64,000 nt of DNA from Escherichia coli (GTDB lineage Bacteria; Pseudomonadota; Gammaproteobacteria; Enterobacterales; Enterobacteriaceae), in the NCBI RefSeq assembly GCF_003018255.1, contig NZ_CP027440.1; one strand, written 5' to 3'. Shown piece by piece: positions 31,112-64,000 of the stretch (positions within the stretch are counted from its first letter, which is position 1; each line of letters opens with the position of its first letter). The notes under the pieces were generated by a model. The model saw nothing but the letters and a program-made list of their open reading frames with translations, had not been told where the DNA came from and did no database searches. The translations under genes and the position numbers were made by a program.

Positions 31112-32164
31112 ATGATGTCTGCACCCAAAATTACATTTATCGGCGCTGGTTCGACGATTTTCGTTAAAAATATTCTTGGTGATGTGTTCCATCGCGAGGC
31201 GCTGAAAACGGCGCATATTGCCCTGATGGACATTGATCCCACCCGCCTGGAAGAGTCGCATATTGTGGTGCGCAAGCTGATGGATTCAGCAGGGGCCAGC
31301 GGCAAAATCACCTGCCACACCCAACAGAAAGAAGCCTTACAGGATGCCGATTTTGTCGTGGTGGCATTTCAGATTGGCGGTTATGAACCTTGCACGGTGA
31401 CTGATTTCGAGGTCTGTAAGCGGCATGGTCTGGAACAAACCATTGCCGATACGTTGGGGCCGGGCGGTATTATGCGCGCGCTACGTACCATTCCGCATCT
31501 GTGGCAAATTTGCGAGGACATGACGGAAGTCTGCCCCGATGCCACCATGCTCAACTACGTTAACCCAATGGCGATGAATACCTGGGCGATGTATGCCCGC
31601 TATCCGCATATCAAACAGGTAGGGCTGTGCCATTCGGTGCAGGGAACGGCGGAAGAGCTGGCGCGTGACCTCAATATCGACCCGGCTACGCTGCGTTACC
31701 GTTGCGCAGGTATCAACCATATGGCGTTTTACCTGGAACTGGAGCGCAAAACCGCCGACGGCAGTTACGTGAATCTCTACCCGGAACTGCTGGCGGTTTA
31801 TGAAGCAGGGCAGGCACCGAAGCCGAATATTCATGGCAATACTCGCTGCCAGAATATTGTGCGCTACGAAATGTTCAAAAAGCTGGGCTACTTCGTCACG
31901 GAATCGTCAGAACATTTTGCTGAGTACACGCCGTGGTTTATTAAGCCAGGTCGTGAGGATTTGATTGAGCGTTATAAAGTACCGCTGGATGAGTACCCGA
32001 AACGCTGCGTCGAGCAGCTGGCGAACTGGCATAAAGAGCTGGAGGAGTATAAGAACGCCTCCCGGATTGATATTAAACCGTCACGGGAATATGCCAGCAC
32101 AATCATGAACGCTATCTGGACTGGCGAGCCGAGTGTGATTTACGGCAACGTCCGTAACGTATAG
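31112..32164 (+). pseudogene. melA: alpha-galactosidase, 5' fragment (about 349 codons) truncated by prophage insertion
   Basis: GH4 N-terminus MMSAPKITFIGAGS; the frame ends ...IYGNVRNV* exactly where prophage-end sequence begins; full-length MelA is recalled as about 451 aa. Confidence 0.8.
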
Positions 32165-32260
32165 CGCGGCGATTTTTTTGATACCGATTTGCATTTCATT
32201 TGATACCGCTGAAAAACGCCGATACGCAACTTATTTGATACTAAATCGGCGCTTTTCTTT
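32165..32260. repeat. prophage right-end terminal region with three direct TTTGATAC(C/T) repeats; candidate transposase-binding sites
   Basis: Repeats at 32177, 32199 and 32234 plus a GAAAAACGC motif, immediately inside the melA junction. Confidence 0.45.
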
Positions 32261-32287
32261 TGAGTTTTAGAATGAGTTTTTAAGCGC

Positions 32288-33025
32288 TCATTCACTCTCT
32301 TTCAAACCAGTTTTAACTGTTTGTGGTTTTGGGTAAGGCTGGACTTTGAATAGCTTTGTGTTGAGGCGTTTTCTGGCCCTCTTGTTCAGAAACCGGATGT
32401 AACGAAACTGTCGGAACTTATGCACACTGGCTCTGTCGATATTAGCCCTCAGATGTTCACCTCGTTGTCCGCCTCGTTTAATGGCACTCCTGCAAATCTC
32501 GTGATACCACTCGCCATCAAGTTCATAGAATGTTGATTCATGGCTGCCTACATAATCAAAATTGCTTGCCTGATACACGACACCAAGACAGCCACAACGC
32601 TCATCTGCAAACGACTGAACCCACTGTACCTGCGGATAAAGCTGCCTGATTAGCTTGAGCGCGTAACTGATTGCCCTTGATTCGGAGTTTCTCGGCATAC
32701 AGTCATGCATCCATAGCCGGTTAAGCTCCATATATTCTCGGTTCTGCGTACCCGTTACGACGCGTGCACCACTGTTTGGGTTAAGGGCGTAACCCCATTG
32801 CATTACGCCAACAAGTTCCCGTTCTGAAAATATACCCAGATGAAGGTAGGAATTATTTACGAAACGGTGGCTGTAATGTTTATTGACGATAACCAGTCTG
32901 GCCAGCCAGCAACTTATTGTCTCAACCCGCAACTCACGGGAGCCATAACCAACGATATTGTCGTTATAGCGAATAAGTTCAGGCGTGCTGATGATACGGG
33001 ATGTGACTTGCTTTCTGTTCCCCAC
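32288..33025 (-). CDS. mom: Mom-like DNA modification (adenine carbamoylmethylation) protein
   Basis: 245-aa ORF overlapping the 3' end of a com-like gene, last gene before the prophage end as in Mu; true start probably internal. Confidence 0.6.
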
Positions 33026-33179
33026 GACAGGATTTCCTTGTGTATGTGGGGTGCTCTGTGGCGCTCGGAGATGTGATTTGATTGAGGGTTTTACAGCGCG
33101 GACATTTTACTTCCAGATAACTGAAACTGGCCCGTGCCAGTAGCTTATTGCAGTGTCGGCACCGTATGTTTCGATACAT
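32979..33179 (-). CDS. com: Com-like zinc-finger translational activator of mom
   Basis: [14 protein letters not shown]...EVKCPRCKT... aligns with Mu Com (IRCKNCNKLL...IRCPRCK) from memory; overlaps the mom start. Confidence 0.7.
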
Positions 33180-33585
33180 GGCCGCATAACCTCCTGCTTT
33201 GTTGTTGATGCCTTTCTCATGCAATCGATCGACAAAAACGATCGATTCGATTTGTTTAATTGATACAACAAATAGATTTAAAAGTCATCAACAATGATTC
33301 AGGGCGGTGATTATTTACTTAAAGAAACGAAGAGTTAGGTGGTGAAAACGATCATAAAATGATCATTTTATTGACTTTTTATACAGTGAAGGTAGGATCG
33401 CGCGTATATGTAGTATGTTTCAAATCAACAGGATACTACATAAAAGGGAAACCCAGCATAGCTGGAACTATGCTGGGTCAATCTGTAAAAACTTGCATCA
33501 ATGCTTTACTTCGAGCTCGTGGCGTATCCTATGATATTCCCCGGTCTCCTGTAAAGCAGAGATGCATAAAAAGGAGATCTTTATC
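33180..33585. promoter_or_regulatory. AT-rich divergent control region upstream of com-mom with five GATC sites (33227, 33240, 33350, 33361, 33396)
   Basis: GATC density well above the roughly 1 per 256 bp expected by chance; position matches the methylation-sensitive region upstream of mom in Mu. Confidence 0.45.
33452..33477 (-). terminator. 10-bp-stem hairpin followed on the minus strand by a T-rich run
   Basis: cccagcatag ctggaa ctatgctggg; minus-strand downstream sequence tttcccttttta. Confidence 0.45.
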
Positions 33586-33756
33586 ATGGATAAAGAGCCT
33601 GTTTGCCCTGCCTGTAAGACTCCCTTACAGCTCATCTATCGCCGTTCTCGATCTCAAAATGGCAAGACATACAAACCAAAAAATGCTTCCTGTTTCAGGA
33701 TGCTGATATGTCCTGCCTGTTCTCCCCGGAGGGAAAATACACAAAACGTGCATTAA
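33586..33756 (+). CDS. small zinc-ribbon protein (CPAC...CPAC), the only plus-strand gene in the prophage part
   Basis: ATG 33586 preceded by AAGGAG at 33571-33576; MDKEPVCPACKTPL...MLICPACSP; ORF track 33562..33756. Confidence 0.45.
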   Translation: MDKEPVCPACKTPLQLIYRRSRSQNGKTYKPKNASCFRMLICPACSPRRENTQNVH

Positions 33757-33794
33757 CAAATTCACCCGGCAGGGAAACCTGCCGGTCGGTATTG

Positions 33795-34040
33795 TTACAT
33801 CATAGTACCGTCAGTTCCGGGTTGAACCGGCTCTGGTTGCTCTACGGGTTGAGGCTCATTTTCCGTGCTGTTTTCAGCCGGAGAACGACCAACCATTCGG
33901 GCCAGCACTTCATCAACATATGCGTCGATTTGTGCCTCAAAATCCTTGCGAACCTGCGCCTTCAGCACGCGGTTCACTTCTTCAGAATAAAGTGCCTGTT
34001 TGACAAGCTCTTCAGTAACCGTGCCTTTAATCTCTGGCAT
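33795..34040 (-). CDS. hypothetical acidic 81-aa protein
   Basis: ORF with AGGAG RBS upstream of ATG; no recognisable motif. Confidence 0.45.
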   Translation of the reverse strand: MPEIKGTVTEELVKQALYSEEVNRVLKAQVRKDFEAQIDAYVDEVLARMVGRSPAENSTENEPQPVEQPEPVQPGTDGTMM

Positions 34041-34075
34041 GAATATTCTCCTTTCCTTTTCTGGTTCACAAAAAA

Positions 34076-34255
34076 TTAAATCTGACCGGAGTCTTTCGGC
34101 TGCGGCATTACAGCACCGCTTTTTATCTTTTCCTCGGCAGCTGCATCAATTTTATTTCGAAAATAATTGCGAATAATTTTATAACCACCGCTGACAAGCA
34201 ACAGACAACAAACCACCGTGCAGAAATACAGCAGGCAGACGTTTATATATGTCAT
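34076..34255 (-). CDS. hypothetical 59-aa single-pass membrane protein
   Basis: MTYINVCLLYFCTVVCCLLLVSGGYKIIRNYF... read from the minus strand, GAGG RBS; below the ORF-track length cutoff. Confidence 0.4.
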   Translation of the reverse strand: MTYINVCLLYFCTVVCCLLLVSGGYKIIRNYFRNKIDAAAEEKIKSGAVMPQPKDSGQI

Positions 34256-34312
34256 ATAAGCCTCACTCTTATTAACTGATGTTACAGCCGGATAAATTCC
34301 CGGCCGTCACGA

Positions 34313-36361
34313 TTATGCCGCAGGGGTATTAACCTCAAGGACAACGCTCTCAAAAGACACGCCATAAGTTGCCCCTTTGGTGACATCTGTCAGTGTCAGC
34401 GTATCTTTGGCAGGGGAAAGTGCATCTTTCACCATCTGGAATGCCTGGCCCGGAGTGCCATCCAGCACAGGCGTTACCTGGGCACTTCCCGCCGTAAACT
34501 TCAGGACAAGTGTATGCCACTGGTTATTGTAGGCTCCAAATGATCCCAGTTTCGTATTCCCCCCTGTTTTATGGTGCATCAGATTTAACTGGCCGCCTGT
34601 TGTCTGGAGATAATACGCCATCAGGAACGGTGTGCCTGTACCACTCATGGTTACACCTTCCGGGACCGTATCGGTGTGGAGGTAAATACCCAGAGCAAAC
34701 TGGCCTTCTTTTACTTCACCTGACAGACGGAATTTACAGGTCAACTGACCACCATGCTTCAGAAGTTCACCGGCTGCATCAGTTCCATGGGTAAGCGTCC
34801 AGGTTTTTCCGCTTTGTTTGGATACGGTCAACGCTTTACCTTCGTCCGTCAGCTGGATTGTACCATCTGTAATTTTCCAGCCCTGAGCCGGGGCTTCTCC
34901 TGCTGATGCTTTAAGTGAAAGCAGCGTACGGAGTGACGGGGATGTCGGATGGGGGGACTCACTGCCTCCTGGCTGACTACCTGTCGGCGCTTCCGGTTTC
35001 CCACCCGGCGCGGGCTGAGGCAGGGCTTCACCATCAGGGGCCACACCGGCAATAAATGCAGAGGTCAGACCTGCATATTTAAGAATTGCTGATGCAAAAC
35101 GATCTGAGACCAGAAAACGGCGCGCCCAGGAGCTAAAATGGGTTGCCCTGGATGCTGTTGTCCAGTTGCCATCTCCCCGTGATTCCGCACCATAATACCC
35201 GGCAGAAGCGATATCCGGGTCGTGCTCCGGCAGGTTGGTCGCGGTTTTATTACCGAACTCATCGTGCATCAGTGGAACAAAGTGAATGTTCTCGGAAGCC
35301 CGGTTTTTATATCCGCTATAAATGGTTTCATATGCCGCCGGGTTCTTCTCTTTCCAGTCATAGGTTGTGTCACCACATAACCACGGCACACTGTCTGATG
35401 AACCACCAATACACTGACCGGAGAAAGCACCAAGATCCGCACGGAATTTTTTCACCATCGCAGTAAACTGGGCACCATGCTGGGCCGGGGTCGCTTTAAG
35501 GTCTCCTTCCCCCTGAATCCATACGACAGATAACAGCACATTCTTTGGATTCGCCTCAAGTGCCGCTTTAGTTCGACTGACAAGATCCTGATACAGTGGG
35601 GTATCCACTCCCCAGCGTAGTGACGCCTCGGCTGCACCACTTGCCGGATCGAATGAGCCAACTGCGCCGGTTGTAAAAGCAGAGCCGCCACGGGCACAGG
35701 GAACCAGTAAAATCCCGGCATCAGCAGGAATCACCGGTAATACTTTTTTCGCAATATGAAGTCCCTGCCCCACACAACCATACTGCCCTTTTTTCAGGTC
35801 TGCTTTTGGATGGTTCAGCAGACTCATATTCTGAACATCATGAAGGCAGTGATCTGCTGGAATGATTTCATTGTATTTGCAGGGAATACCTCCGGGGGTT
35901 TGTGTATTCCTGCGTGCCAGCTGCATAATACGTGGATCAGGACGATCATAAGAATCCGGAAGGGGCAACCCTTCACCATAAGATGAAGCATTGGACTGGC
36001 CGGCTATAACAATCACGTAATACCAGGAAGGGGAGCTGGAAGCAGTTTCATTTCCTGACGGACGGGTATGTGTTTCAGCATTATCCCAGTCTGACGGTTC
36101 AGCAGTACCGGCAACATCAGCACTTAACGGAATGACCGCACCAATACCCGCTCCGGTAATTTCCACACTCGGATCACCGGATACTGGCCTTACCCACAGG
36201 CAATCCCGTGTATTAAAACTGATGAGACAGTCAGCAAATGTCATTCCTCCTTTTGTTTCGGCCGGAGGAAAGGGAGCCTCAAGAAATGCCGCTGTACCAC
36301 CGGAAACTTTAACAGTAAAGTTTCCGGGCATTGATGATAGTTGAACCCATTTGGACGTCAT
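34313..36361 (-). CDS. SGNH/SASA-type sialate O-acetylesterase-like protein with C-terminal beta-rich putative carbohydrate-binding domain (resembles prophage NanS-p family)
   Basis: 682-aa ORF; IAGQSNASSYG esterase signature, Pro-rich linker, about 200-aa C-terminal domain; no signal peptide. Confidence 0.55.
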   Translation of the reverse strand: MTSKWVQLSSMPGNFTVKVSGGTAAFLEAPFPPAETKGGMTFADCLISFNTRDCLWVRPVSGDPSVEITGAGIGAVIPLSADVAGTAEPSDWDNAETHTRPSGNETASSSPSWYYVIVIAGQSNASSYGEGLPLPDSYDRPDPRIMQLARRNTQTPGGIPCKYNEIIPADHCLHDVQNMSLLNHPKADLKKGQYGCVGQGLHIAKKVLPVIPADAGILLVPCARGGSAFTTGAVGSFDPASGAAEASLRWGVDTPLYQDLVSRTKAALEANPKNVLLSVVWIQGEGDLKATPAQHGAQFTAMVKKFRADLGAFSGQCIGGSSDSVPWLCGDTTYDWKEKNPAAYETIYSGYKNRASENIHFVPLMHDEFGNKTATNLPEHDPDIASAGYYGAESRGDGNWTTASRATHFSSWARRFLVSDRFASAILKYAGLTSAFIAGVAPDGEALPQPAPGGKPEAPTGSQPGGSESPHPTSPSLRTLLSLKASAGEAPAQGWKITDGTIQLTDEGKALTVSKQSGKTWTLTHGTDAAGELLKHGGQLTCKFRLSGEVKEGQFALGIYLHTDTVPEGVTMSGTGTPFLMAYYLQTTGGQLNLMHHKTGGNTKLGSFGAYNNQWHTLVLKFTAGSAQVTPVLDGTPGQAFQMVKDALSPAKDTLTLTDVTKGATYGVSFESVVLEVNTPAA

Positions 36362-36460: not shown

Positions 36461-37021
36461 TTATTTTTCCGAAACGCTCGCAGGATAATAACGATAAAGG
36501 GTTGAAAGACCGATATCAAAAATAAGTGCCACCTGTCTTCGACTGACACCCCCGGCCAGTAAACGCCCGACCTGCTCGTATTGTTCCTGCGTGAGACGGC
36601 GGGGTCTGCCGCCGGTTCGTCCCCTTTCACGGGCAGCTGCAAGACCAGCCCGTGTCCGTTCGACAATTAATTCACGCTCCATTTCTGCCAGCGCACCCAT
36701 TATGTGAAAAAAGAAACGCCCCATGGGGGTTGACGTATCAATGTTGTCAGTAAGACTACGAAAATTTATCCCCTGTTGCTGTAATTCATCTGTCAGCGCA
36801 ACAAGGTGGCGCATACTGCGCCCCAGCCTGTCCAGTTTCCAGACCATCAGTGTGTCACCGGGTTTTAGTTTCTTCAGTGCCCGCTTCAGTCCCGGCCGCT
36901 GTGTCGTTTTACCACTCATTTTGTCTTCAAAAATCTGCTCACATCCTGCACATTCCAGCGCATTTCTTTGTAAACCGGTGTTCTGGTCATTTGTTGATAC
37001 GCGTATATAGCCAATCAGCAT
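36461..37021 (-). CDS. gin: serine DNA invertase of the Gin/Hin/Cin/Pin family
   Basis: MLIGYIRVSTNDQNTGLQRNAL...GRFFFHIMGALAEMERELI aligns closely with Mu Gin (recalled); adjacent to the invertible segment. Confidence 0.9.
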   Translation of the reverse strand: MLIGYIRVSTNDQNTGLQRNALECAGCEQIFEDKMSGKTTQRPGLKRALKKLKPGDTLMVWKLDRLGRSMRHLVALTDELQQQGINFRSLTDNIDTSTPMGRFFFHIMGALAEMERELIVERTRAGLAAARERGRTGGRPRRLTQEQYEQVGRLLAGGVSRRQVALIFDIGLSTLYRYYPASVSEK

Positions 37022-37076
37022 GTATTTACCTTCCTTAAAAAGAGGTGAAAATGCCTTTTAAAACAGATATACGGTA

Positions 37077-37102
37077 TCCCTGAAAACCTCGGTTTACGGG
37101 AA
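37077..37102. promoter_or_regulatory. gix-like recombination site, gin-proximal (crossover core TC at 37089-37090)
   Basis: tccctgaaaacc tc ggtttacgggaa matches the gix/hix consensus TTATCCAAAACC TC GGTTTACAGGAA (recalled). Confidence 0.65.
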
Positions 37103-37471
37103 ACGGTAAATAAGGCTGCTGATGCCCTGCCATCGGGTGGAACCGCCGTGGCAGCAAACAGACTCGCCACCCCAAGAAATATTAATGGCGTTCCTTTTGA
37201 CGGAACGCAGGATATCAACATCACGTCAGGAATGACGCAGTCAACCGCAGATGGCCGGTATGTACAGAATGTTCAGCTTGGAGCACAGAGCTATCATTCA
37301 CCCGGAGGCAATGAAATATCATGGAATTACAGCGCACCTTCCGGTTGTATGCTTTCCGGTATTAACGTGCAGGAAACCGGCTCCCGGTCTGCGGACAATA
37401 TCGGTGGGGTCTATTATCGCCCGGTTCAGATTTATATTAATAATGCCTGGAGAACGGTAAGTTCAGTGTAA
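37091..37471 (+). CDS. promoterless alternative tail-fibre C-terminal cassette (S'v-like) inside the invertible segment
   Basis: Open frame from the gix core: GLRETVNKAADALPSGGTAVAANRLATPRNINGVPFDGTQDINITSGMTQS... shares its first 50 codons with the expressed fibre then diverges; ORF track 37148..37471. Confidence 0.6.
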   Translation, partial: GLRETVNKAADALPSGGTAVAANRLATPRNINGVPFDGTQDINITSGMTQSTADGRYVQNVQLGAQSYHSPGGNEISWNYSAPSGCMLSGINVQETGSRSADNIGGVYYRPVQIYINNAWRTVSSV

Positions 37472-37505
37472 ACCACAGAAAAGGGTGCTGAATGCACCCT
37501 CTGAA

Positions 37506-38027
37506 TTATTCCGGTTTTTCCGGCCAGGGAATCGCCTGGTAATGCCCCTCACTGGCAATATCATTAAAGTGCATTTCTTTAAGCTGTCGGATATACGCCA
37601 TCCAGCGCGTCAGCTGTAATTTATTTTCATCGCTAATCATGTCCAGTTTTAATTCTGTTTTCCAGTCATCCACGGTTTCGTTGGCTTCCTGGAGCAGCGA
37701 TGAGCGACGCTTTTCAGCAACCGTCTTCCAGTTTACCGGCACCTTTGATATCAGGCCATCAGAAAACTGCCAGTTACCGTCAATATTCACACCTTCCGGC
37801 AGTTCGTCCACTTCAACAACAGTAAAACCTGCCGGATATAAAGCAGAGACATCTTCAGCAACAGAGCAGATAATACCCGTTACAGGCGAAATACAGAGTT
37901 TGTATTTCTTTGTGAAAAGCGGGATAGATTCATAAAAATCCCTTCCGTCCTCACTCTGGAAATACTGAACATCCTCACCATAGGGTTTGTGTTCCGGGTA
38001 ATATCGTTTTACGTTAATAAGCTCCAT
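37506..38027 (-). CDS. tail fibre assembly (chaperone) protein, U-like
   Basis: ORF track 37506..38138; start at MELINVKRYYPEH (AAGGTG RBS); downstream of the fibre gene. Confidence 0.7.
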   Translation of the reverse strand: MELINVKRYYPEHKPYGEDVQYFQSEDGRDFYESIPLFTKKYKLCISPVTGIICSVAEDVSALYPAGFTVVEVDELPEGVNIDGNWQFSDGLISKVPVNWKTVAEKRRSSLLQEANETVDDWKTELKLDMISDENKLQLTRWMAYIRQLKEMHFNDIASEGHYQAIPWPEKPE

Positions 38028-38106
38028 TATTTCACCTTGTTTTTGTTGAAAAGACAAAATCATCATATATTTATTCAGATAATCTGTTTTTTGAACTACT
38101 GCACTT

Positions 38107-38994
38107 TTATGCGCTGGAAGCTGTTTTCCACGAACCATCTATCAGAAACTGAACAGGTCGATAATATGCGGTTACCGTTGCATTACCATCACCAGCGACA
38201 TCAAGCCCTGTAAGTACGCATCCGTCAGGAACTTCAAAAATATTATATTGCATTCCAATCGTTGACCTTGAACCTCTTCGAATGCTTTGAACATAACGTG
38301 AGTCAGCCACAGACTGCGTCATCCCCGATGTAATATTTATATCCTGCGTTCCGTCAAATGGGACACCATTAATATTTCTTGGAGTGGCGAGTTTATTCGC
38401 TGCAACAGCCGTTCCGTTCGATGGCAGGGCATTCGCCGCCTTATTTACCGTTTCCCGTAAACCGACGTTATCGATAAAAGCGCCTTTATCCGGAATGTCT
38501 GCGCCGTTCTGCTCCCTGCGCAGGTAACGGTTATCACCTTCGCTTTTGCTGTAAACATCCAGATTATTACGGGCGGTTCCCGCATTCTCCAGGTCGGCAA
38601 GGTTCTGATCCTTCGCCAGAGCATTAACGTCACCGGGACCAAGACTGTTTTTTGTGGCAAGCGCCCCAAGACCAAGATAACCACGGGCAAGACGCTGGGC
38701 TTCCGCACCGGCATCAGCAATTTCTTTCAGGTTGTTTTTCCGGGAAAAGGCATTCGCAGCGATAATGGCTTTAATGGACAGCGTAAGCTGGTTTAACTGC
38801 GCCTTATCCGGCTGAATACTGGCTTCAGCCAGAATATTCAGCAGTTCGGCCTGGAGAATATTCAGCCAGTCCTGACCAATCCAGCTGATACCTTTTTGTC
38901 CGTCACCTTCGGTAAACCAGGTGGTGGTATTACTCTGCGCCGGTGCCAGCGCAGGCATATTCGCCACGCCGGAATTATTATCAACATGAAACAT
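38107..38994 (-). CDS. tail fibre protein (S-like); constant part outside and variable C-terminus inside the invertible segment
   Basis: 295-aa ORF; the gix site at 38452-38477 lies in-frame inside the coding sequence (codons FIDNVGLRE). Confidence 0.75.
   Translation of the reverse strand: MFHVDNNSGVANMPALAPAQSNTTTWFTEGDGQKGISWIGQDWLNILQAELLNILAEASIQPDKAQLNQLTLSIKAIIAANAFSRKNNLKEIADAGAEAQRLARGYLGLGALATKNSLGPGDVNALAKDQNLADLENAGTARNNLDVYSKSEGDNRYLRREQNGADIPDKGAFIDNVGLRETVNKAANALPSNGTAVAANKLATPRNINGVPFDGTQDINITSGMTQSVADSRYVQSIRRGSRSTIGMQYNIFEVPDGCVLTGLDVAGDGNATVTAYYRPVQFLIDGSWKTASSA
38452..38477. promoter_or_regulatory. gix-like recombination site, distal (core GA at 38464-38465), inside the tail-fibre gene
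   Basis: ttcccgtaaacc ga cgttatcgataa; same left half and core as the inverted site at 37077-37102. Confidence 0.65.
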
Positions 38995-50243: not shown

Positions 50244-50286
50244 ATTTGCCCTCCGCAGGGGCCGGGCCGTAAGCCCGGCTCACCGT

Positions 50287-52358: not shown

Positions 52359-52534
52359 TCCGGCAGCATAGGCCGGGAATTTTCAGGGCGGGTTTTGCGG
52401 GATTTCAGGAAGTGCTTCCAGGGGAAAAATACAAAGGCGCTTCACGCAGATTTTAAAGCCCGTTAAATACAGGTTAGAAAATCACGACACGCGCCTGAAG
52501 GGGGTAAGGTAATGCATTTGCATACCTTAAACAA
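52359..52534 (-). promoter_or_regulatory. 176-bp non-coding gap upstream of the protease gene with imperfect palindrome aggtaatgcatttgcatacctt; candidate activator-dependent late promoter
   Basis: The only sizeable gap inside the otherwise tightly packed head operon. Confidence 0.3.
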
Positions 52535-53008
52535 TTAAGGCGTTTCTGTGGCCTTTTTAAAGCGTTTTCTGATTTCGTCCATGATCTCCTGCTCTGCCAC
52601 CTGATCAAAGCCCATATACGGACGTGCACCAATGGCCGCCGGTCCCGGCGGCATACCTGGCAGGCCACCCCACTGATGAATGGCCGCATAAGGCTCATTT
52701 GATCCAATCAGCGCCCAGGTGTCGCCATAATCCGTGGTCAGGCGTCGGGCCAGATCGCCGTTCAGCGTCAGGATTTTGCCGGGCATGTATCCCTTACGGG
52801 TACGCCACTTGCGGTAAGGATCTGACCAGTCATGCCAGCGTTCGCCGTCCGGCTCTTTTTCCTGTTCAAACGCCATTTCTGACGATGACAGAAGGCTGGA
52901 CGCCACACTGCGGGCCAGGTCTTTTCCGCCACCCACAAACTGAAGCCGGGCAAAGACCCGCTGGAGACGCGTAACGTCAACAACGACGGCGGCATCAATG
53001 GATGACAT
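52535..53008 (-). CDS. virion morphogenesis protein (Mu G-like)
   Basis: 157-aa ORF between F-like and I-like genes. Confidence 0.6.
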   Translation of the reverse strand: MSSIDAAVVVDVTRLQRVFARLQFVGGGKDLARSVASSLLSSSEMAFEQEKEPDGERWHDWSDPYRKWRTRKGYMPGKILTLNGDLARRLTTDYGDTWALIGSNEPYAAIHQWGGLPGMPPGPAAIGARPYMGFDQVAEQEIMDEIRKRFKKATETP

Positions 53009-53129
53009 ATTGCCTCCGTATAAAATATGAATATAAAATAAGCAGGCGGTCAGTGTACGCTTAACTGGTAAAGTCGGTGCCTGCCTCCGGGTGGATCATG
53101 TATGCGGGTTCGACCCCCGCCACTGACCG

Positions 53130-56043: not shown

Positions 56044-57698
56044 CCCCGATCAAATTCATGATATGCCTCATCGTCATCACGATAACCGCCCTCCATGGCC
56101 CGCGACCGCTCCGGCAGCGCCTGACAGGCTGATTCATCCAGGATGAAGCCCTCCATGTATGACGCCCGGTTTGCCATACAGAGCGCCACGGCAAAATCGC
56201 CATGGCGGCGGGCGTTCACAGCCGTTGCGTTCTGGTCCTTCGTACGCCCCTTGTCAATTTGCGGGATACCGTTCACCACCTTCACATGGCGCAAATCATC
56301 AAGCGTGGTCTGATGGCGGGCGACGAGGATATTCTGATCCTCAAACTCGGCCTTCAGTTTTGGCATCCACTCGCCGTACCACTTCGGCGATAACATCACG
56401 CAGTCGATGATGTCCGGGCCAAAGGCCAGCAGCGCGGCTTCGGCCAGATAGCCGCCGTTACCGGTGGCGTCGAACGCCGCACCGACCAGCGCCGGAACGC
56501 GGGTCAGGATGTACATCATCACCTGCTCCTGCTGGGCATACGGCAGGTTGCGCAGCTCCACGCGAAACACCTCGCGTTTTGCCAGGGATTCAGTGATTTC
56601 CAGCAGCACAAAGCAGGAGAGGTCACCGATGCGGGCAAAGTCTTCCCCGAAGCTGAAGCGGGAACGGGGATTTAACGCCTCTAAAAGCGGTTTTAAATGT
56701 TCTTCACACCAGGTTAAAACCTCCGATTCACGCAGCCATGCGGCACGGCTGATGAAGTCGTCCGGGGCTTCAAACGTCAGAATCGGGATGTCGCGGAGCA
56801 TCGCCATTTCAATAAGCGCGTGAGGAATATAGGCACCGCCGGATTTTTTCGGGATACAGCCGTATTCCTCGTCGGCATCCTCACGGGTCGGGGCGTTTTT
56901 GTAGAGATCATCACGCCACTTCTGCTCGCTTTCCGGTGACCATTCGCGGCCGGTGACATAACAGATACGACGGTACAGCCCGTCCGCAATGGCATCATCC
57001 AGGGTAATGCGGTGGACGCTGTAATCCTTGCGCCCCTCGCGGGCTTCCTGAATGTACTGATTAAACAGATTATCGACGCCGTTATGCGTGGAGATAATAC
57101 GCACGCGCGCGCCCCACATGGTGAGCGCCATTGCCGCCTTGAGAAGCTCATCCAGTGACTCGTGGAACGCGGCTTCATCAATCACCACATCCCCCTGAAG
57201 GCCGCGCAGGTTTGACGGACGGGAAGACAGTGCCTGAATTTTGAATCCACTGTTCGGAAAGCGGATCATGTAGGTCAGAATTTCTTCTTTTTTATCCCGA
57301 TCCCAGAAGGTCTGCTCATACACATCAGCATCTGCCAGCTGGTTAAAGGCACGGGAGAACAGTGCGCAGGCAGAAATATATTCCAGCGCCATCTCCTGCT
57401 TTGACCCCACATAAAACACATTGCGGCCACCACGCCGCTTAGGCTTTGCGGCGGTAATGACGTTACGCCCGGCTTCCGCCCAGGTAAGCCCGGTGCGGCG
57501 GGATTTTTCCGCGATGCAGACCTCGCTTTCATCCTCAAACCAGCGGGCCTGATAATCCAGAAATACCGGCATATCACCGGGCAAATCAAGGCTGTCCGGC
57601 ACATCCACGCCCAGCAGGGCTTTTTCACCGGCCAGATCAATTTTGCGGGTGGAGACGGTATTCGTCAGTAAGGGGGAGAGTTCTTCGGCGTTATTCAT
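56034..57698 (-). CDS. terminase large subunit (Mu gp28-like)
   Basis: 554-aa ORF; size and position upstream of portal. Confidence 0.75.
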   Translation of the reverse strand: MNNAEELSPLLTNTVSTRKIDLAGEKALLGVDVPDSLDLPGDMPVFLDYQARWFEDESEVCIAEKSRRTGLTWAEAGRNVITAAKPKRRGGRNVFYVGSKQEMALEYISACALFSRAFNQLADADVYEQTFWDRDKKEEILTYMIRFPNSGFKIQALSSRPSNLRGLQGDVVIDEAAFHESLDELLKAAMALTMWGARVRIISTHNGVDNLFNQYIQEAREGRKDYSVHRITLDDAIADGLYRRICYVTGREWSPESEQKWRDDLYKNAPTREDADEEYGCIPKKSGGAYIPHALIEMAMLRDIPILTFEAPDDFISRAAWLRESEVLTWCEEHLKPLLEALNPRSRFSFGEDFARIGDLSCFVLLEITESLAKREVFRVELRNLPYAQQEQVMMYILTRVPALVGAAFDATGNGGYLAEAALLAFGPDIIDCVMLSPKWYGEWMPKLKAEFEDQNILVARHQTTLDDLRHVKVVNGIPQIDKGRTKDQNATAVNARRHGDFAVALCMANRASYMEGFILDESACQALPERSRAMEGGYRDDDEAYHEFDRGCW

Positions 57699-58279
57699 CA
57701 GGCTTTACCCAACAGAATCCCCTTAATACGGGACTCAAGCTGTTCACTCATCCCGTCCACGCCGCGCAGCTCGTCGGTGACGGCGTTTGCCATCTCTTCA
57801 GCAAATGCAGCCCGGATTTCTTTTTCACGCTTAATGCTGCGCTCGGCGGCACTTTCCGCACGCTGTGCTGACAGGAGGATGTCCTTAATAAGACGCATAT
57901 CCACGTCGCTGTCACTGTTCAGGGATTCGGTCGCGGCACGCAGACGGCGGTACATCAGGGCGCGGGACATCTCCAGAATCAGCGCTGTGGTTTCACCGGT
58001 TGGCTTGTCTCCCAGTTCGGCCATCATGGCTTTTGTCTGCTCGCGTAAATCACGCAGGTTACGGGCAATCAGCTCATTACGGGAGGCTTCCCGGCTGATG
58101 GCCGCCGGTGAAAGCTGCTGCTCTTCCGGCAGGCCCGCCTCACGGATCAGACGGTTGATTTCCTCGCGTATCTGGACCTGCGTCAGACGTTTTTCACGCA
58201 GCATTTCCAGCAGTGGCTTACGGATGCTGTCGGGGAGCAAATCCACCTTGCGCACGCGTCCACGCGTCGGCTTGTCCAT
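57698..58279 (-). CDS. terminase small subunit-like / DNA-binding protein (Mu gp27-like)
   Basis: 193-aa charged helical ORF immediately upstream of the large terminase. Confidence 0.5.
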   Translation of the reverse strand: MDKPTRGRVRKVDLLPDSIRKPLLEMLREKRLTQVQIREEINRLIREAGLPEEQQLSPAAISREASRNELIARNLRDLREQTKAMMAELGDKPTGETTALILEMSRALMYRRLRAATESLNSDSDVDMRLIKDILLSAQRAESAAERSIKREKEIRAAFAEEMANAVTDELRGVDGMSEQLESRIKGILLGKA

Positions 58280-58281: not shown

Positions 58282-58572
58282 TTACCCCCTTGCGCGTGGT
58301 TTCTTCACACCCGGAACGCTGGCGCGACCTTCCGCCACATCCTGACCCCGGCCGGTCAGTTCGGCGATGAAATAACCGTTAACGAGCGTGCGCTTACGCA
58401 CCAGTCCCTGCTCGGCAAGCCAGGCAATGTGGGTGTGAACGGTGTCGCGGGACACGCGGTGGCCGTAATCATCCAGACAGTCCTGGAGCACGGATTCACC
58501 CAGTTCACCGTTGTAATCTGCCAGCGACCGCAGAATGACCAGACGCTGATCTTCAGTAATGAAATCACTCAT
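58282..58572 (-). CDS. hypothetical protein (Mu gp26-like)
   Basis: 96-aa ORF. Confidence 0.4.
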   Translation of the reverse strand: MSDFITEDQRLVILRSLADYNGELGESVLQDCLDDYGHRVSRDTVHTHIAWLAEQGLVRKRTLVNGYFIAELTGRGQDVAEGRASVPGVKKPRARG

Positions 58573-58877
58573 TGCGTTTTTTTCCTTACAGCCTGCTCCA
58601 GCAGCAGTTCGTTCTGATAGGAGACAGAGCGGAGCGTGGCGTTCGTGGTTTTCAGTTCACCCCGCAGGGTCACGATTTCCACATTCAGACGGTTGACCTC
58701 GGCTTCTGTCGGCAGTGACGACAGGCGGGTTTCCACCTTCTCAACGCGGTCGGAGAGTTTTTCAAAGGCCTCGCGGGGGACAAACGTTTTGCGCATCAGC
58801 GCCATGAATATCCCGCCAGCGGTTGCCGTCGCCGAAAGGATCGGCACAACATAATCTTTAACGATGCTGACCCACAT
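58569..58877 (-). CDS. membrane protein with one TM helix and coiled coil; candidate endolysin-release (releasin-like) lysis factor
   Basis: 102-aa ORF, N-terminal hydrophobic segment ILSATATAGGIFMALM, sits in the lysis-proximal block. Confidence 0.35.
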   Translation of the reverse strand: MWVSIVKDYVVPILSATATAGGIFMALMRKTFVPREAFEKLSDRVEKVETRLSSLPTEAEVNRLNVEIVTLRGELKTTNATLRSVSYQNELLLEQAVRKKTQ

Positions 58878-59085
58878 GACGGGCCTCCATGATGTTCTGG
58901 CAGTTCACACAACGGATGGCATCCGGCACAGCAACAAGACGTGCGGCGGGGATCTCTCCGCCACAGTCCGCGCAGACACGTCTGCCCGGAGCATCCATTG
59001 CCCGGCGCTTACGTGTCAGCCGGTTACAAAGGGCGCGTTCTGATCCCCGCTCCATCACAGCCTGAGCACGATCTGAATCATCCAT
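58858..59085 (-). CDS. TraR/DksA-family C4 zinc-finger protein
   Basis: CADCGGEIPAARLVAVPDAIRCVNC motif (CxxC-17-CxxC); start taken at MDDSDRAQ. Confidence 0.6.
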   Translation of the reverse strand: MDDSDRAQAVMERGSERALCNRLTRKRRAMDAPGRRVCADCGGEIPAARLVAVPDAIRCVNCQNIMEARHVGQHR

Positions 59086-59095
59086 ACCTTTTTCC

Positions 59096-59467
59096 TTACT
59101 TCGTCTTTCCTGCCGGAACAGCAGGCGTTCCGGCCATATCAGTAAATTCATGTTGTCGCCGCGCCTCCAGACGACGAATACTGGCCTTGTCCACGTTGCA
59201 GTTCTTGATCACCGCCAGCAGTTGCAGGTTGTAAGTGACCGATGCCCCAAACGTGAACGGCTCCGGCGCAGGAGGGACCAGGCAGTCAGCCAGCCATTCA
59301 GCGGGGATCGGCACCGGCTTCACAGGCACGTATTTCACAGACGGCCCGGCGCACCCGATCAGCCACATCATCAGGAACAGGGGCAGAGGCCGCAGGCACT
59401 GCCGCCAGCGACCGGCGGACAACGCTCTGCTGCCCCTCGCTGTGCTGAATGTTCTGTTGTTTTTCAT
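59096..59467 (-). CDS. o-spanin (Rz1-like) lipoprotein, out of frame within and beyond the Rz-like gene
   Basis: Lipobox LIGC followed by a proline-rich mature region; read from the alternative frame of ORF 59096..59662. Confidence 0.5.
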   Translation of the reverse strand: MKNNRTFSTARGSRALSAGRWRQCLRPLPLFLMMWLIGCAGPSVKYVPVKPVPIPAEWLADCLVPPAPEPFTFGASVTYNLQLLAVIKNCNVDKASIRRLEARRQHEFTDMAGTPAVPAGKTK

Positions 59468-59648
59468 TCGTGGCCGCCTCACTGATTTGTGAAATGAGTT
59501 GCAGGGTGTGCTGCTGATTTGCCAGCACCTGACGCGCCTCATCCCGCTCACGCACAAGCACCTGATTATTGTCTTCAAGGCGCTGCGTCTTCTGGTGCAT
59601 TCCCCATATAGCGGCAACCAGTACAGCGATAATCCCCAGCGCCGCCAT
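59298..59648 (-). CDS. i-spanin (Rz-like), start uncertain
   Basis: N-terminal TM helix then charged coiled coil; ORF track 59298..59819 overlaps lys, so an internal start was chosen. Confidence 0.5.
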   Translation of the reverse strand: MAALGIIAVLVAAIWGMHQKTQRLEDNNQVLVRERDEARQVLANQQHTLQLISQISEAATNEKQQNIQHSEGQQSVVRRSLAAVPAASAPVPDDVADRVRRAVCEIRACEAGADPR

Positions 59649-59760
59649 GCACGCCCCGGCAATCAGGGCCGGTAAGGCATTATTCACCGCAGCCACAGGA
59701 CACCCCGTAACAGCAGTACCGCACACAGCAGCGCTATCATGAGCGGTCGCCAGAAGCGGT

Positions 59761-60261
59761 TCAGACTTTCGGCAAGTCGTAGCGACATAACCATTCATCC
59801 GCCGAACGGCGGGCCTCAAGGCCGGGGAGTTTCACCCCCTTTGAATAAATCCAGCGGATATACTGCTTACAGGACGCGGGCATCTGCCCGGCATTGATCA
59901 GGCGCAGAAGCGTGGAGTTGCGAAAGTTCGTTTCACCGGCCCAGAAGATCCACGAAGCCAGCGCCACCGTCTGACCACGGGTAAGCGGCACCTGAACACG
60001 CCGATCAATGGCCGCAAAGGCCCATTTCATGTCCTTTTCCAGTAGTTCCAGGCATTCTTCATCTGTCAGGGTCATACCCGGTTTCACATCCGGGCCGGTA
60101 TGGCCGTAACAGATGGTGGGTGTACCGGAGGGATCGATATACGTGGAGTTTTCTTTCCCTTCCCAGTAACCGGTGTAATGCGTGGCAATCGTGAACGTCC
60201 CGGCACCGGCCAGAACAAGGGCAATCAGCTTTTTACGCAGTGGTGCGGGGAGTTTTGGCAT
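59761..60261 (-). CDS. SAR endolysin (T4-lysozyme-like, GH24)
   Basis: N-terminal Gly/Ala-rich weak TM (LIALVLAGAGTFTIA) then E...D...T catalytic spacing (YWEGKE..YIDPSGTPTICYG). Confidence 0.7.
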   Translation of the reverse strand: MPKLPAPLRKKLIALVLAGAGTFTIATHYTGYWEGKENSTYIDPSGTPTICYGHTGPDVKPGMTLTDEECLELLEKDMKWAFAAIDRRVQVPLTRGQTVALASWIFWAGETNFRNSTLLRLINAGQMPASCKQYIRWIYSKGVKLPGLEARRSADEWLCRYDLPKV

Positions 60262-60332: not shown

Positions 60333-60758
60333 TCAGAAAAGTGGCGGTTGCGTTCTTGCCAGATGCAGACGGCGCTGTTCGCGTATGACGGTATAAATCT
60401 GGGTTTCTGACATCCGGTAATGGCGGCGAAGGGATTCAATTTTCTCGCCCCGGTCCCAGCGCGAAAATATCTCATTGTTTCGCAGCTCGGCAAAGAGAGA
60501 TTCCCCGACCGGCAGGTAATAACCCCGTCCGCCCATATAGGCTGCCTGAGCCGCAGCCACCTTGCGTGCCAGTTTACCGGCCAGTACCGGCTCAATCCCC
60601 TGACGCTGAAGTTCTGCGCCGGTGACTTCAACCAGTTCTGACAGGGTCCGCGGCCAGTTCTTTTTGAGAACATCATCAGGGATGTCATCAAGGCGGTCGA
60701 TAAGGGCGTGCAGTTGCTCACTGTCACCACCAAACATGCTCATCTGAGTTTCTGCCAT
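60333..60758 (-). CDS. Mor/C-family transcriptional activator
   Basis: C-terminal region GGRGYYLP...IYTVIREQRRL resembles Mu Mor (GGGQVYIP...VYKAIRRMRRL, recalled); immediately upstream of the lysis gene. Confidence 0.65.
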   Translation of the reverse strand: MAETQMSMFGGDSEQLHALIDRLDDIPDDVLKKNWPRTLSELVEVTGAELQRQGIEPVLAGKLARKVAAAQAAYMGGRGYYLPVGESLFAELRNNEIFSRWDRGEKIESLRRHYRMSETQIYTVIREQRRLHLARTQPPLF

Positions 60759-60827
60759 ATCAGCCTCCGGTTCTCGCGTTCCCGGTAAGTTTAAAATAAA
60801 AATCCCGCGTTGTGGCGGGATTTGGAG

Positions 60828-61337
60828 TTAACGGGGAAGTGATTTTTCATACTGCCTGCAAACGGCGTCATACCCCATCAGCGTGCGTTCGGGCATTCCC
60901 ATCGCGGCCAGCATTTTGCGGCGGTGCCATCGCTTGAGACGCTCCAGCACATCTGAGGCCAGGGCGGGGTGTTGCTCCAGCCACTGCCAGTTTGCCACAC
61001 CTTCGCCGCCGTTTTGCGCGGCCGTCTGCGATTTCACCCAGCGGTTAAGGGCGGTTTCCGCACCATCGGTGATAAAGCCCTGCCGGTGCATCACCTTCCA
61101 GATGGCGCGAATTTTGGCGGTCACCGTACCCGGTTTTAAGGCCCGGTTAACCGGGTTCTGACGCACTTTAAAACCGCGTTTTTTGAAAACATCCAGCACG
61201 CGGGATAACTCATCCGGTGACATATCCCGGCAGCTGGTTTTGCCGGTGGCTGCCAGCAGCGCGGATGTATAAGTCTCATCATCCAGGGCAAGCTCGCGCT
61301 TTGCCACATGAATGGCGGATATCAGTTTTCCTCTCAT
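60828..61337 (-). CDS. GemA-like (DUF1018) early regulatory protein
   Basis: 169-aa ORF with N-terminus LISAIHVAKRELALDDETY typical of the family; position before Mor/C as in Mu. Confidence 0.55.
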   Translation of the reverse strand: MRGKLISAIHVAKRELALDDETYTSALLAATGKTSCRDMSPDELSRVLDVFKKRGFKVRQNPVNRALKPGTVTAKIRAIWKVMHRQGFITDGAETALNRWVKSQTAAQNGGEGVANWQWLEQHPALASDVLERLKRWHRRKMLAAMGMPERTLMGYDAVCRQYEKSLPR

Positions 61338-61630
61338 ACCGTATTTACCTTTTTACGGACATGGAAAGCCTTTTCTGCCTCATCCCACCGGGCATGGTGT
61401 GTTGGTGGAATAATCATTATGTGCCAGCCATCTCTGGTTGTTATCCGGCAGAAAAATTCACCGCTATATAACACAATGGCCTGCTGAATGAGCGCATCAG
61501 CCGCCCGTTCAACCGGATGTCTTTTATCAAAAAAGCAGATGATTTTTCGACATAACCACCGGGTAATAACAAATGCGCCGAAAAAGGATGTGATATATAA
61601 GCACCAGAACAACAGAGAACTATTGTCCAT
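61334..61630 (-). CDS. hypothetical early-region membrane protein
   Basis: 98-aa ORF with hydrophobic N-terminus. Confidence 0.35.
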   Translation of the reverse strand: MDNSSLLFWCLYITSFFGAFVITRWLCRKIICFFDKRHPVERAADALIQQAIVLYSGEFFCRITTRDGWHIMIIPPTHHARWDEAEKAFHVRKKVNTV

Positions 61631-61817
61631 TATCTTTCTCCTTATTCAGTCTTCTGCGACATTCGGCACAGTCATCAGGGCTTTCAAATGTATCCGGCTC
61701 GCGATTATGAGCCAGATATAACCACCGCCTACATATACTGATATTATCGCCAGTTTTAAAAAAATGATGCTTCTTAGCCATCAGAGGGCGCGCCCATCCA
61801 GCGGGTAGACTATTCAT
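61620..61817 (-). CDS. hypothetical early-region protein
   Basis: 65-aa ORF. Confidence 0.3.
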   Translation of the reverse strand: MNSLPAGWARPLMAKKHHFFKTGDNISICRRWLYLAHNREPDTFESPDDCAECRRRLNKEKDNGQ

Positions 61818-62184
61818 TTGCTTTATCCTCCATACTGGACAAAATCATCTGTATTAATGTCGGGCGTGGAGATATACGCATTTCATTAAGCGTCTGAAGG
61901 GCAGCAACAGCTGCCTGTTTATCGGTGCCTTTGGCAATTTCCGCAAGAGAATGCACAATCCATAACGGACTTAACGCCACGACTGAATCCAGAATCATGT
62001 CATCCATAATAATTTCTGACACATCCCGCTTATCACATTCCTTATCCATAAAAGAAACGATTTTTTCCACATCTTCCGGTTTCATGCCTCCGGCGATAAG
62101 AAATTTGCGATACTCATAAGACGATCTTAATTCAATACTCATATTCATCTCCTGTAACTCTGACAAGGACGTGATTTTTCTCAT
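61810..62184 (-). CDS. hypothetical early-region protein
   Basis: 124-aa ORF, overlapping start/stop with neighbours. Confidence 0.4.
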   Translation of the reverse strand: MRKITSLSELQEMNMSIELRSSYEYRKFLIAGGMKPEDVEKIVSFMDKECDKRDVSEIIMDDMILDSVVALSPLWIVHSLAEIAKGTDKQAAVAALQTLNEMRISPRPTLIQMILSSMEDKANE

Positions 62185-62366
62185 TTATGTTTTCCAGTAA
62201 TACGGATATATATGTCGATAAGAAGATTCATAATAAACAGGAAGAGCGACATCCTGATAAAGAACCAAATATCTGGCATCATGGACAGGTTTCCTGTAAT
62301 CGCAAATATAACCCCCCCCCCCAACACCGGAACGAAAATTGCGAAAAATACAAGTCTCTTTATCAT
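62181..62366 (-). CDS. hypothetical small membrane protein
   Basis: 61-aa ORF with two hydrophobic segments. Confidence 0.35.
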   Translation of the reverse strand: MIKRLVFFAIFVPVLGGGVIFAITGNLSMMPDIWFFIRMSLFLFIMNLLIDIYIRITGKHK

Positions 62367-62914
62367 GGCGTTAACTCCCGTAATACAGCGTCCTCGGCAG
62401 TCCGGCGATGGTGATAAATAAAATTCACCGTACTCTCGGATAATTCAAATTTCTCGCCTATTTCCCGGAAGGTAAGACGTCGTGGTGATTCAGCATCCCG
62501 TAATTCACGAATAAGATGAACATCATCGTCAGGTATACGGGTGAAGGGCAGCAATTCTCCGTATTTTTTCATGCTTACGCCAATATATCGCGCCCGATTG
62601 TGGACAGAATCCCGGTCTCGCCCCAGATATTCTCCTATTTGCTTACCGGTCATCGTTCTGGCATTTTTTCGGATAAATTTATCTTCATCATGTTTAAATC
62701 TTGGACGTTTGCATTTGAGCAACTCCGGGTAAGTACCGCGTAATAAAACAATCCGGTTATGTACACCCCAGAAACTTCTTTTTACCCTGACAGCAATATC
62801 CTTAACCGGGGTGGATGGATAAAGCGCAATCAGCAGCGCATCTTCTTCAGGTGTCCACGCACGGACATGAGCAGGTGCCTGACCTTTTCGCCCCATGGGT
62901 TGTAAAATCATCAT
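62363..62914 (-). CDS. hypothetical early-region protein with several helix-turn-helix-like segments
   Basis: 183-aa basic ORF with HTH-like stretches (TGKQIGEYLGRDRDSVHNRARYIG, LTFREIGEKFELSESTVNFI). Confidence 0.4.
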   Translation of the reverse strand: MMILQPMGRKGQAPAHVRAWTPEEDALLIALYPSTPVKDIAVRVKRSFWGVHNRIVLLRGTYPELLKCKRPRFKHDEDKFIRKNARTMTGKQIGEYLGRDRDSVHNRARYIGVSMKKYGELLPFTRIPDDDVHLIRELRDAESPRRLTFREIGEKFELSESTVNFIYHHRRTAEDAVLRELTP

Positions 62915-62917
62915 ACA

Positions 62918-63433
62918 TCACCCCCTGACTCGCTTTTCAGCAGCATAAAACTCATCAGACAGAATTTCGGTCATTTTCTGATTTGCGGGTTTTACGCCGC
63001 ACTCAAGGTAAATCACATCGTCAACGCAGAACCACTTCACAGGGCCAAACATGATTGCCGAGAAATCAATACCCAGCCAGAACAACAGTGCATCGGTTCT
63101 GGCATACGTGACGGGCGAATATTCACGCCACAGACTGTTAAGTTCGTCAGAGGCAACGCGCAGGGCTTTGGGAATACGTGATGTGCGCGGTGTGCAGCTC
63201 CAGCCATTCGACGCAGTCGGTTTTCGCCATAAGTCGCGATGAAAAGGATATTTGTCATCCATAAAGCGCAGCCCTTTAAAACAAAAGCCACTGATACCGG
63301 ATACAAATACCGACCGGCACGCAACATTCAGCACGGCCTCAAGGCGTTTTGCCTCATCCTTAACTTTCTGGCAGTCCTGCTGATATTTTTGCCACGCGGC
63401 CAGCGCGGAAGGGTTTGATGTTTTAAAGAACAT
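62918..63433 (-). CDS. hypothetical early-region protein
   Basis: 171-aa ORF. Confidence 0.4.
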   Translation of the reverse strand: MFFKTSNPSALAAWQKYQQDCQKVKDEAKRLEAVLNVACRSVFVSGISGFCFKGLRFMDDKYPFHRDLWRKPTASNGWSCTPRTSRIPKALRVASDELNSLWREYSPVTYARTDALLFWLGIDFSAIMFGPVKWFCVDDVIYLECGVKPANQKMTEILSDEFYAAEKRVRG

Positions 63434-63966
63434 TACGCCACCTCCGCAGATATCCCGGCAGGCGCGGCCGTCCGGTCAACAATCAGGTAACGCAGAACGC
63501 GCGAGGTGATATTCCAGCCGCTTAAACCGCAGATAATGACACCCAGGCGTATGTCGATATACGCCATCACAAACTGGGGCACGCCTTCTTTCATGGCCTG
63601 CTCATCAACTTCAGCCACCACATAAACGGTTTCACAGGTCAGAACGCCCTGAGCAAATTCCCACGCCATTGACGGAATATCATGCCCCTCAATCCACGGC
63701 AGGGATTTTCTGAAGCTGCACCACTGAACATCATCAGCCGCACCTTCCTGGCTGCATTTGCGACGAACCGGCTGCACCGGGCGGGGACGCGGAATATCAT
63801 AAAAACCGTTACATTCCGTCAGCACCCCGGCATCGACCGCATCACGCAGAAAATAAACCATCGAGGATGGCGGCATATTCATTTTTTCAGCCAGAATGCC
63901 GCAGGTCAGACGCCCGTAAATACTCAGCCAGTTTTTAACCCCTTCAAGCACTTTTGCATCAATCAT
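63433..63966 (-). CDS. hypothetical early-region protein with N-terminal winged-helix-like segment
   Basis: 177-aa ORF. Confidence 0.4.
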   Translation of the reverse strand: MIDAKVLEGVKNWLSIYGRLTCGILAEKMNMPPSSMVYFLRDAVDAGVLTECNGFYDIPRPRPVQPVRRKCSQEGAADDVQWCSFRKSLPWIEGHDIPSMAWEFAQGVLTCETVYVVAEVDEQAMKEGVPQFVMAYIDIRLGVIICGLSGWNITSRVLRYLIVDRTAAPAGISAEVA

Positions 63967-64000
63967 GAATTATTCCTCCGTCAGCGCCACATATTCAGAA

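Follow-up and report, generated by a model that had tools for sequence, protein, structure and literature searches.

An Sp18-type Mu-like prophage in melA of Escherichia coli, with the TA right terminus and four-base-pair target duplication of its family

Sp18 of Escherichia coli Sakai is a Mu-like prophage inserted in sorM, and copies in other strains have been found at strain-specific positions (PMC2669165, PMC7430833, PMC10132054). It has been predicted to be intact; in Sakai no circular Sp18 DNA was found and the prophage was not induced by mitomycin C (PMC2669165). Here we describe a relative of Sp18 in a stretch of 64,000 nucleotides (nt) of E. coli DNA (contig NZ_CP027440.1, assembly GCF_003018255.1; the whole stretch is called the window throughout). 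Phage DNA begins at position 32160 inside the alpha-galactosidase gene melA and fills the 31.8 kb up to the window end, with nearly every long open reading frame (ORF) on the minus strand. By its sequence the element is an Sp18-type Mu-like prophage of Shiga-toxin-producing E. coli, a type already described and widespread. We consider it very probable that a temperate phage of this type, predicted to be intact, integrated at melA codon 349/350 by DDE transposition.

The host side of the junction was compared with uninterrupted melA genes. Host DNA from 27189 to 32159 is colinear with the adiA-melR-melA region of K-12 at 98.4% identity, and this colinearity halts exactly at 32159, one base before the phage begins.

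31112..32164, plus strand: truncated melA (alpha-galactosidase), 350 codons, comprising MelA 1-349 followed by a phage-encoded valine and TAG

Residues 1-349 differ from K-12 MelA (451 amino acids, aa) by three substitutions and from the MelA of strain 13P477T by none, whereas phage DNA supplies the valine at position 350 and the TAG stop (32162-32164). This agrees with an earlier reading of the window, made from the sequence only, that melA is normal to codon 349 and then enters phage DNA. MelA loses its C-terminal 102 residues through the insertion, and the truncated protein covers only positions 2-330 of the 432 in the NCBIfam alpha-galactosidase profile PRK15076. The exact truncated protein is recorded once, in the independent short-read Logan assembly SRR8931299, whose contig_137 corresponds to window 21111-37116 with one gap in 16,006 bp. 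None of the 5,426 complete E. coli genomes has the junction. When viral, metagenome and genome contigs were scanned for exact patterns, the right junction and the left junction as predicted both failed to turn up, the left pattern being blind owing to a synonymous GGT-to-GGA change. One might suppose that the junction is an assembly chimera or that melA is a naturally short allele (the latter doubt was already raised in the sequence-only reading), and the only point in favour is that the window ends inside the phage. Both junctions are however found in the independent assembly, the closest lineage with an uninterrupted melA has a complete gene of 451 aa, and the stop codon is phage-encoded, which makes this explanation hardly conceivable. 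The truncation is real.

The same assembly allowed us to follow the prophage beyond the window. The first 2,962 bases of its contig_5 (locus L042 of our comparison) are 100% identical to window 61039-64000, with no mismatch, and contig_5 thus continues the window; coordinates past 64000 are equivalent positions extrapolated on this contig. Past the window end follow an ORF of 180 aa, Gam, three small ORFs, Kil and one small ORF, then a MuB-like ATPase, a transposase of 696 aa, a Ner-like HTH_35 protein (88 aa), a divergent CI-type repressor of 203 aa and the left end. The MuB-like AAA+ ATPase (310 aa, Phage-MuB_C) is 48% identical to MuB. The transposase matches Pfam Mu-transpos_C (E 3.5e-17) and HTH_Tnp_Mu_1 (E 1e-4) and gives weak rve matches; its identity to MuA is no more than 23%, and the GDG, SDN/IDN and E motifs of the DDE triad are aligned. 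The transposase, the ATPase and the repressor expected past 64000 in the sequence-only reading are therefore all present on contig_5.

The 3′ part of melA, likewise sought beyond the other prophage end, directly adjoins the left end, which reads ...CACCTGGTTACA and then AACGATGGATTGATTGATAACC..., that is, melA from codon 349 onward. In K-12 the empty site reads GTCCGTAACGATGG. The 5′ and 3′ parts of melA are contiguous save for a duplicated AACG, and both junctions occur in SRR8931299. A duplication of 5 bp had been expected; it is one of 4 bp.

32156..32159: left copy of the target duplication AACG; the window reads ...GTCCGTAACG followed by TATAGCG
equivalent 71000-71003: other copy of AACG, after the phage left end; contig_5 reads ...GGTTACA followed by AACGATGGATTG

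The prophage measures 38,840 bp, from 32160 to equivalent position 70999, with about 7.0 kb beyond the window, and from its two junctions the insertion reads as a simple transpositional event. That the element arrived by transposition and not by integration at a tRNA gene or att site, as proposed earlier, is borne out by the MuA-family transposase, the MuB-like ATPase, the duplicated AACG and the use of many unrelated sites. Pfam and PHROGs show no tyrosine or serine integrase in the phage, and there is no att site; its sole recombinase is a Gin-type invertase of 186 aa beside an invertible segment. Within the window ARAGORN reported no tRNA, and Rfam at gathering thresholds reported host small RNAs only.

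At the left junction (L042 9940-10273) the phage end also provides an in-frame ATG (..AAATGATTCACCTGGTTACA followed by AACGAT..), which would make an ORF of 109 codons in which MIHLVT is fused to MelA 349-451, downstream of the outward-reading repressor gene. The recorded gene caller picked a later GTG start for the 3′ ORF of melA.

Mu-like phages may also leave junctions that are one side of an adjacent deletion or inversion, in which case the 3′ part of melA would be lost or located elsewhere. There is precedent in the family, namely a prophage of strain 2313 between hyaE and torS without duplication, and at our locus melB is missing downstream. Against this, the left end in SRR8931299 abuts the exact next bases of melA together with the duplicated AACG, and the melB-less junction is identical in a sample without the phage and in 1,264 complete genomes (see below). 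A rearrangement is therefore highly improbable and, to judge from the left junction, already refuted, unless the strain of the window differs from SRR8931299 at this point.

The fate of melB bears on what the insertion meant for the host. Past the 3′ part of melA contig_5 carries no melB, which the sequence-only reading had placed there; instead, yjdF (216 aa) lies 20 bp past the melA stop, with fumB and dcuB next. This melA-yjdF junction (L042 10274-10293, equivalent to about 71312-71331) is identical in 1,264 of the 5,426 complete E. coli genomes (23%) and in sample L035, which lacks the phage and has a melA with 10 differences in 1,048 bases (about 1%). Thus the loss of melB is old, belongs to a common haplotype and is unrelated to the phage, and the mel operon, as these junctions indicate, was already crippled by the absence of melB before the phage arrived. 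As the dedicated permease was already gone in the lineage, the melibiose-negative phenotype predicted in the sequence-only reading is probably independent of the phage, and the insertion probably did not cost the host its use of melibiose. The melA gene of L035 carries a nonsense codon of its own, E339*, which together with the melB-less junction suggests decay of melA after the loss of melB. That melA has been knocked out on a melB-less background, here by the phage and in L035 by its nonsense codon, is in keeping with a relaxed selection on the mel gene that is left.

In addition to the position of the insertion, the ends of the prophage call for comment. The mom gene is transcribed towards 32160, so that 32160 is the right end of the phage and the window displays the phage in reverse.

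32160..32260, plus strand: phage right end (attR-like), terminus 5′-TATAGCG, three direct TTTGATACYR repeats

The sequence-only reading had remarked that the terminal nucleotides are not TG, which is correct, and had left the choice between an atypical end and a junction shifted by a base or two. The end is indeed atypical, and there is no shift. In all 12 copies examined, Sakai Sp18 included, the right end starts with TATAGCGCGG, preceded by bases that vary, so that the terminus is TA (...GCTATA-3′) in 12/12 and the terminal TG...CA pattern is not followed. The left end begins TGTAACCAGG in 12/12 copies at unrelated sites, again after variable bases, and has a TG terminus. The right end was located at 283 places in 231 of the 5,426 complete genomes, in many genes (ypdA, psiE, dcuC, torS, mhpD and others), and most of the BLAST alignments in these 231 genomes start exactly at the terminal T. 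Both ends are in register: the first TTTGATACCG repeat starts from base 18 in each, and they differ at base 2, which is G in the left end and A in the right. TTTGATACYR occurs at +18, +40 and +75 of the right end (32177, 32199 and 32234) as direct repeats, and at +18, +113 and +165 of the left end. Three of its four occurrences in the 64-kb window fall within 67 bp of the right end, where 0.31 would be expected by chance. By analogy these repeats are presumed to be transposase-binding sites equivalent to R1-R3 and L1-L3 of Mu; TTTGATACYR is not known to resemble the Mu consensus.

Target duplications were read by overlapping the host flanks of paired ends; Sakai Sp18 itself, at 5040970-5079724 of NC_002695.2, was compared at its termini and duplication, and the identity figures given below refer to other relatives. 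The duplication has 4 bp in 11 of the 12 simple insertions and 5 bp in one:

melA insertion (SRR8931299): AACG
L001: GGTG
L002 (ypdA): TCAG
L015/L013: AAGG
L016/L007: GGCA
L017/L010: TATA
L018/L011: TCTG
L019/L021: TAAT
L022 (mhpD): TTCT
Sakai Sp18: TAAA
LC727895.1: AGAG (annotated by the depositors as 'duplication due to insertion')
L014/L012 (strain Z1323MEC0002): TTAAA, 5 bp, at an A-run

Empty sites in K-12 confirm 4 bp for mhpD and ypdA; for the dcuC-like insertion site no match to K-12 was available for this comparison. The TTAAA of strain Z1323MEC0002 is either an occasional 5-nt stagger or later slippage. In strain 2313 (L023, NZ_AP027159.1 1251500-1292500) the prophage lies between hyaE and torS without a duplication. 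Its flanks look rearranged, as if by a phage-associated adjacent deletion or rearrangement; hyaE and torS lie about 20 kb apart on the K-12 map.

Other boundaries can be rejected. Placing the cut one base to either side of the right-end T, or starting the left end with GT, is at variance with the terminal T and TG conserved in every copy at unrelated sites, and with shifted boundaries the duplication shrinks to 3 bp or breaks. Since bases outside the transposed unit would be replaced at each replicative transposition, the conserved terminal bases lie inside the unit, and the simplest reading is a 4-nt stagger. The TA right terminus, the 4-bp duplication and a very divergent MuA-family transposase are features of the whole Sp18 family and are visible in Sakai. 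We regard it as likely that Sp18-type phages are a natural exception to two rules of Mu-type transposition, with a right terminus TA-3′ instead of CA-3′ and a stagger of 4 nt, occasionally 5 nt. In the literature searched, no paper states this; one GenBank record does so, in a feature line. Software that calls junctions on the assumption of TG...CA and 5 bp will place the boundaries of Sp18-type prophages one base off. If the proposal is true, these phages offer a natural system for how a MuA-family transpososome reads the terminal dinucleotide and the spacing of its active sites.

If events follow those known for Mu, transposase sitting on the end repeats would cut at the two 3′ ends, which read ...TTACA-3′ (left) and ...GCTATA-3′ (right), and on a target delivered by the MuB-like protein it would join them to phosphates with a stagger of 4 nt. 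The 4-bp duplication would then result from gap repair. Lysogeny would be held by the CI-type repressor, transcribed outward at the left end, and lytic growth would proceed, again as in Mu, via replicative transposition and headful packaging. Gin may invert the tail-fibre segment and thereby switch the host range, and Com and Mom may modify the phage DNA.

Several points weigh against this picture of an intact phage that entered melA. The DNA past 64000 comes from another assembly, and that SRR8931299 derives from the same strain as the window is inferred. Induction, transposition and particle formation are predicted for the melA copy, and the chemistry of the TA end and the 4-nt stagger are deduced from junction sequences only. 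One relative (L014/L012) has a 5-bp duplication, and a plus-strand gene in the cargo block of the phage (33359..34079) is frameshifted. The frameshift, together with the failure of mitomycin C to induce Sp18 in Sakai (PMC2669165), would also fit a fixed defective remnant unable to transpose or to form particles. We judge such a remnant unlikely: the structural, lysis, regulatory and transposition ORFs are all equal in length to those of relatives, both ends and the duplication are intact, and the same study predicts Sp18 to be intact (PMC2669165). Moreover, the melA insertion is present in 0/5,426 complete genomes, which suggests a recent event. The insertion of a predicted-intact Sp18-type phage into melA is an ordinary event for such a phage, with a new site, a near-identical copy and an already decaying operon, and it implies no new host biology.

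The gene content of the window supports the assignment to the Mu-like phages. PHROGs matches, all on the minus strand, comprise Mom, Com, a DNA invertase, tail fibre, tail fibre assembly, sheath, major head and large terminase proteins, and the Pfam set, in Mu order, includes Mu F, Mu portal, Gp27, lysozyme, DUF2570/Rz, LysC/Rz1, TraR, Mor, GemA, Gp12 and Gp11_C. These Pfam assignments are matches recorded on identical or near-identical relatives, and the tail module was identified by ORF sizes equal to annotated genes of the 99%-identical L001. The order and strand of the string from mom and com to GemA, as described earlier from the sequence, are confirmed; the string does not end with GemA, since seven more early ORFs follow up to 63966.

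32288..33025, minus strand: mom (DNA modification), PHROG 1384 (E 1e-83), Pfam Mom, pointing to the right end as in Mu
32979..33179, minus strand: com (translational activator of mom), PHROG 13819 gpCom (E 5e-13)
36461..37021, minus strand: Gin-type serine DNA invertase, 186 aa, PHROG 125 (E 6e-95), Pfam Resolvase and HTH_7
37506..38138, minus strand: tail fibre assembly gene, PHROG 136 (E 9e-58)
38107..38994, minus strand: tail fibre gene, PHROG 1833 (E 5e-137), variable C-terminal part within the invertible segment
38994..49477, minus strand: baseplate and tail module; first YmfQ, baseplate J, gp46, V, baseplate assembly and DNA circularisation protein, then tape measure, tail assembly, tube, sheath (PHROG 165, E 3e-198), DUF2635 and DUF1834
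49474..58279, minus strand: head and packaging module with gp436, HI1506-related protein, major head T, protease/scaffold I, G, F, portal H, large terminase and Gp27
58282..60261, minus strand: small late genes and lysis cassette with DUF2730, TraR/DksA, Rz1/LysC, Rz-like DUF2570 and lysozyme
60333..60758, minus strand: mor (middle operon regulator), Pfam Mor on an identical protein
60828..61337, minus strand: gemA/gp16, Pfam GemA on an identical protein (PHROG 286 match in the mor-gemA region 60333..61337)
61334..64000, minus strand: distal early (semi-essential) region, seven small ORFs, the last up to 63966
62918..63433, minus strand: Gp12-like ORF of the early region
63433..63966, minus strand: Gp11_C-like ORF of the early region

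The invertible tail-fibre segment (37082..38472, about 1.4 kb) is bounded by inverted repeats of 185 nt at 37082-37266 and 38288-38472, and its orientation is opposite to that in the O157 relatives L001 and L002. Between gin and com sits a cargo block of about 3 kb (33359..36361) which is absent from Mu:

33359..34079, plus strand: remnants of a hypothetical gene, annotated as frameshifted in the 99%-identical L001
33795..34040, minus strand: DUF826 gene (Pfam DUF826)
34076..34255, minus strand: DUF1378 gene (Pfam DUF1378)
34313..36361, minus strand: NanS-p type (9-O-acetyl-)sialate O-acetylesterase, 682 aa (Pfam SASA and DUF6645)

The esterase matches NanS (PDB 3PT5, E 3e-110) and NanS-p (6YP6, E 1e-41). 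Genes of this cargo type (NanS-p esterase, DUF1378 and DUF826) are typical of lambdoid Shiga toxin (Stx) prophages.

Three smaller observations were made in the window. Between the phage genes F and G, and antisense to them, a tRNA-like sequence at 53049-53128 (plus strand) scores 31 bits with the Rfam tRNA model against a gathering threshold of 29. It has good acceptor and T arms and an abnormal anticodon arm, was not called by ARAGORN, and its fold energy is no better than that of shuffled sequence (z -0.8); the homologous spot in relatives is labelled 'tRNA-OTHER' by the NCBI annotation pipeline. The HI1506-related ORF of the head region (49890-50243) encodes 117 aa here versus 122-139 aa in relatives; its alignment to L001 is short by 56 nt, and a tandem repeat was looked for there and none was detected. 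On the host side, adiA (biodegradative arginine decarboxylase) contains a TGG-to-TAG nonsense codon at 29252-29254, at about codon 157, which leaves ORFs of 157 and 566 aa, and the gene is intact at 755/756 aa in K-12 and in the closest complete genomes.

The immunity module is mosaic in otherwise 98-99% identical phages, as seen at the left ends of L004-L013, L031-L033 and L042. Repressor variants of 203 aa (HTH_3 and Phage_CI_repr), 172 aa (Mu c-like, HTH_Tnp_Mu_1), 176 aa and 194 aa occur, paired with a matching Ner of 88, 81 or 82 aa and with transposases of 696 or 694 aa.

Over its 31.8 kb in the window the prophage is 98-99.7% (about 99%) identical to whole prophages of O157:H7 strains. 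Identity to L001, L002, L006 and L013 is 98-99.95%, with L006 differing at 5 of 10,568 bases. At 82% coverage and about 87% identity, megablast against GenBank phages recovered only the 'inserted Bacteriophage Mu-like phage' regions of two Stx phage records. With the Sp18-type prophages, including LC727895.1 ('Mu_JNE122137'), the melA prophage shares the gene order, the ends TGTAACC... and ...GCTATA, the 4-bp duplication, the NanS-p/DUF1378/DUF826 cargo and the Gin-invertible fibre segment. It differs in its location in melA and not in sorM as in Sakai, in the flipped invertible segment, in small allelic differences and in its repressor module, the 203-aa CI type being one of at least four alternatives in the family.

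With Mu (Muvirus mu, NC_000929) the prophage has in common the plan c, ner, A, B, kil, gam, mor, lysis, head, tail, gin, com, mom, the MuB-like ATPase at 48% identity, the domain set of the MuA family, a TG left end, three repeats per end with Mu-like spacing and many unrelated insertion sites. In contrast, nucleotide similarity is nearly nil, with a single megablast match of about 600 bp (about 72%, in the portal/F region) out of 23.8 kb queried, the 696-aa transposase and MuA share just 23% of their residues, and the repressor is of the CI type; the right terminus here is TA and not CA, the duplication 4 bp and not 5, and the cargo block of 3 kb that separates gin from com is missing in Mu. 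SfMu and D108 (Muvirus) are alike in lifestyle and gene order, and their sole megablast match is again about 600 bp at about 72% in portal/F. SfMu and D108 group with Mu and not with the Sp18-type phages.

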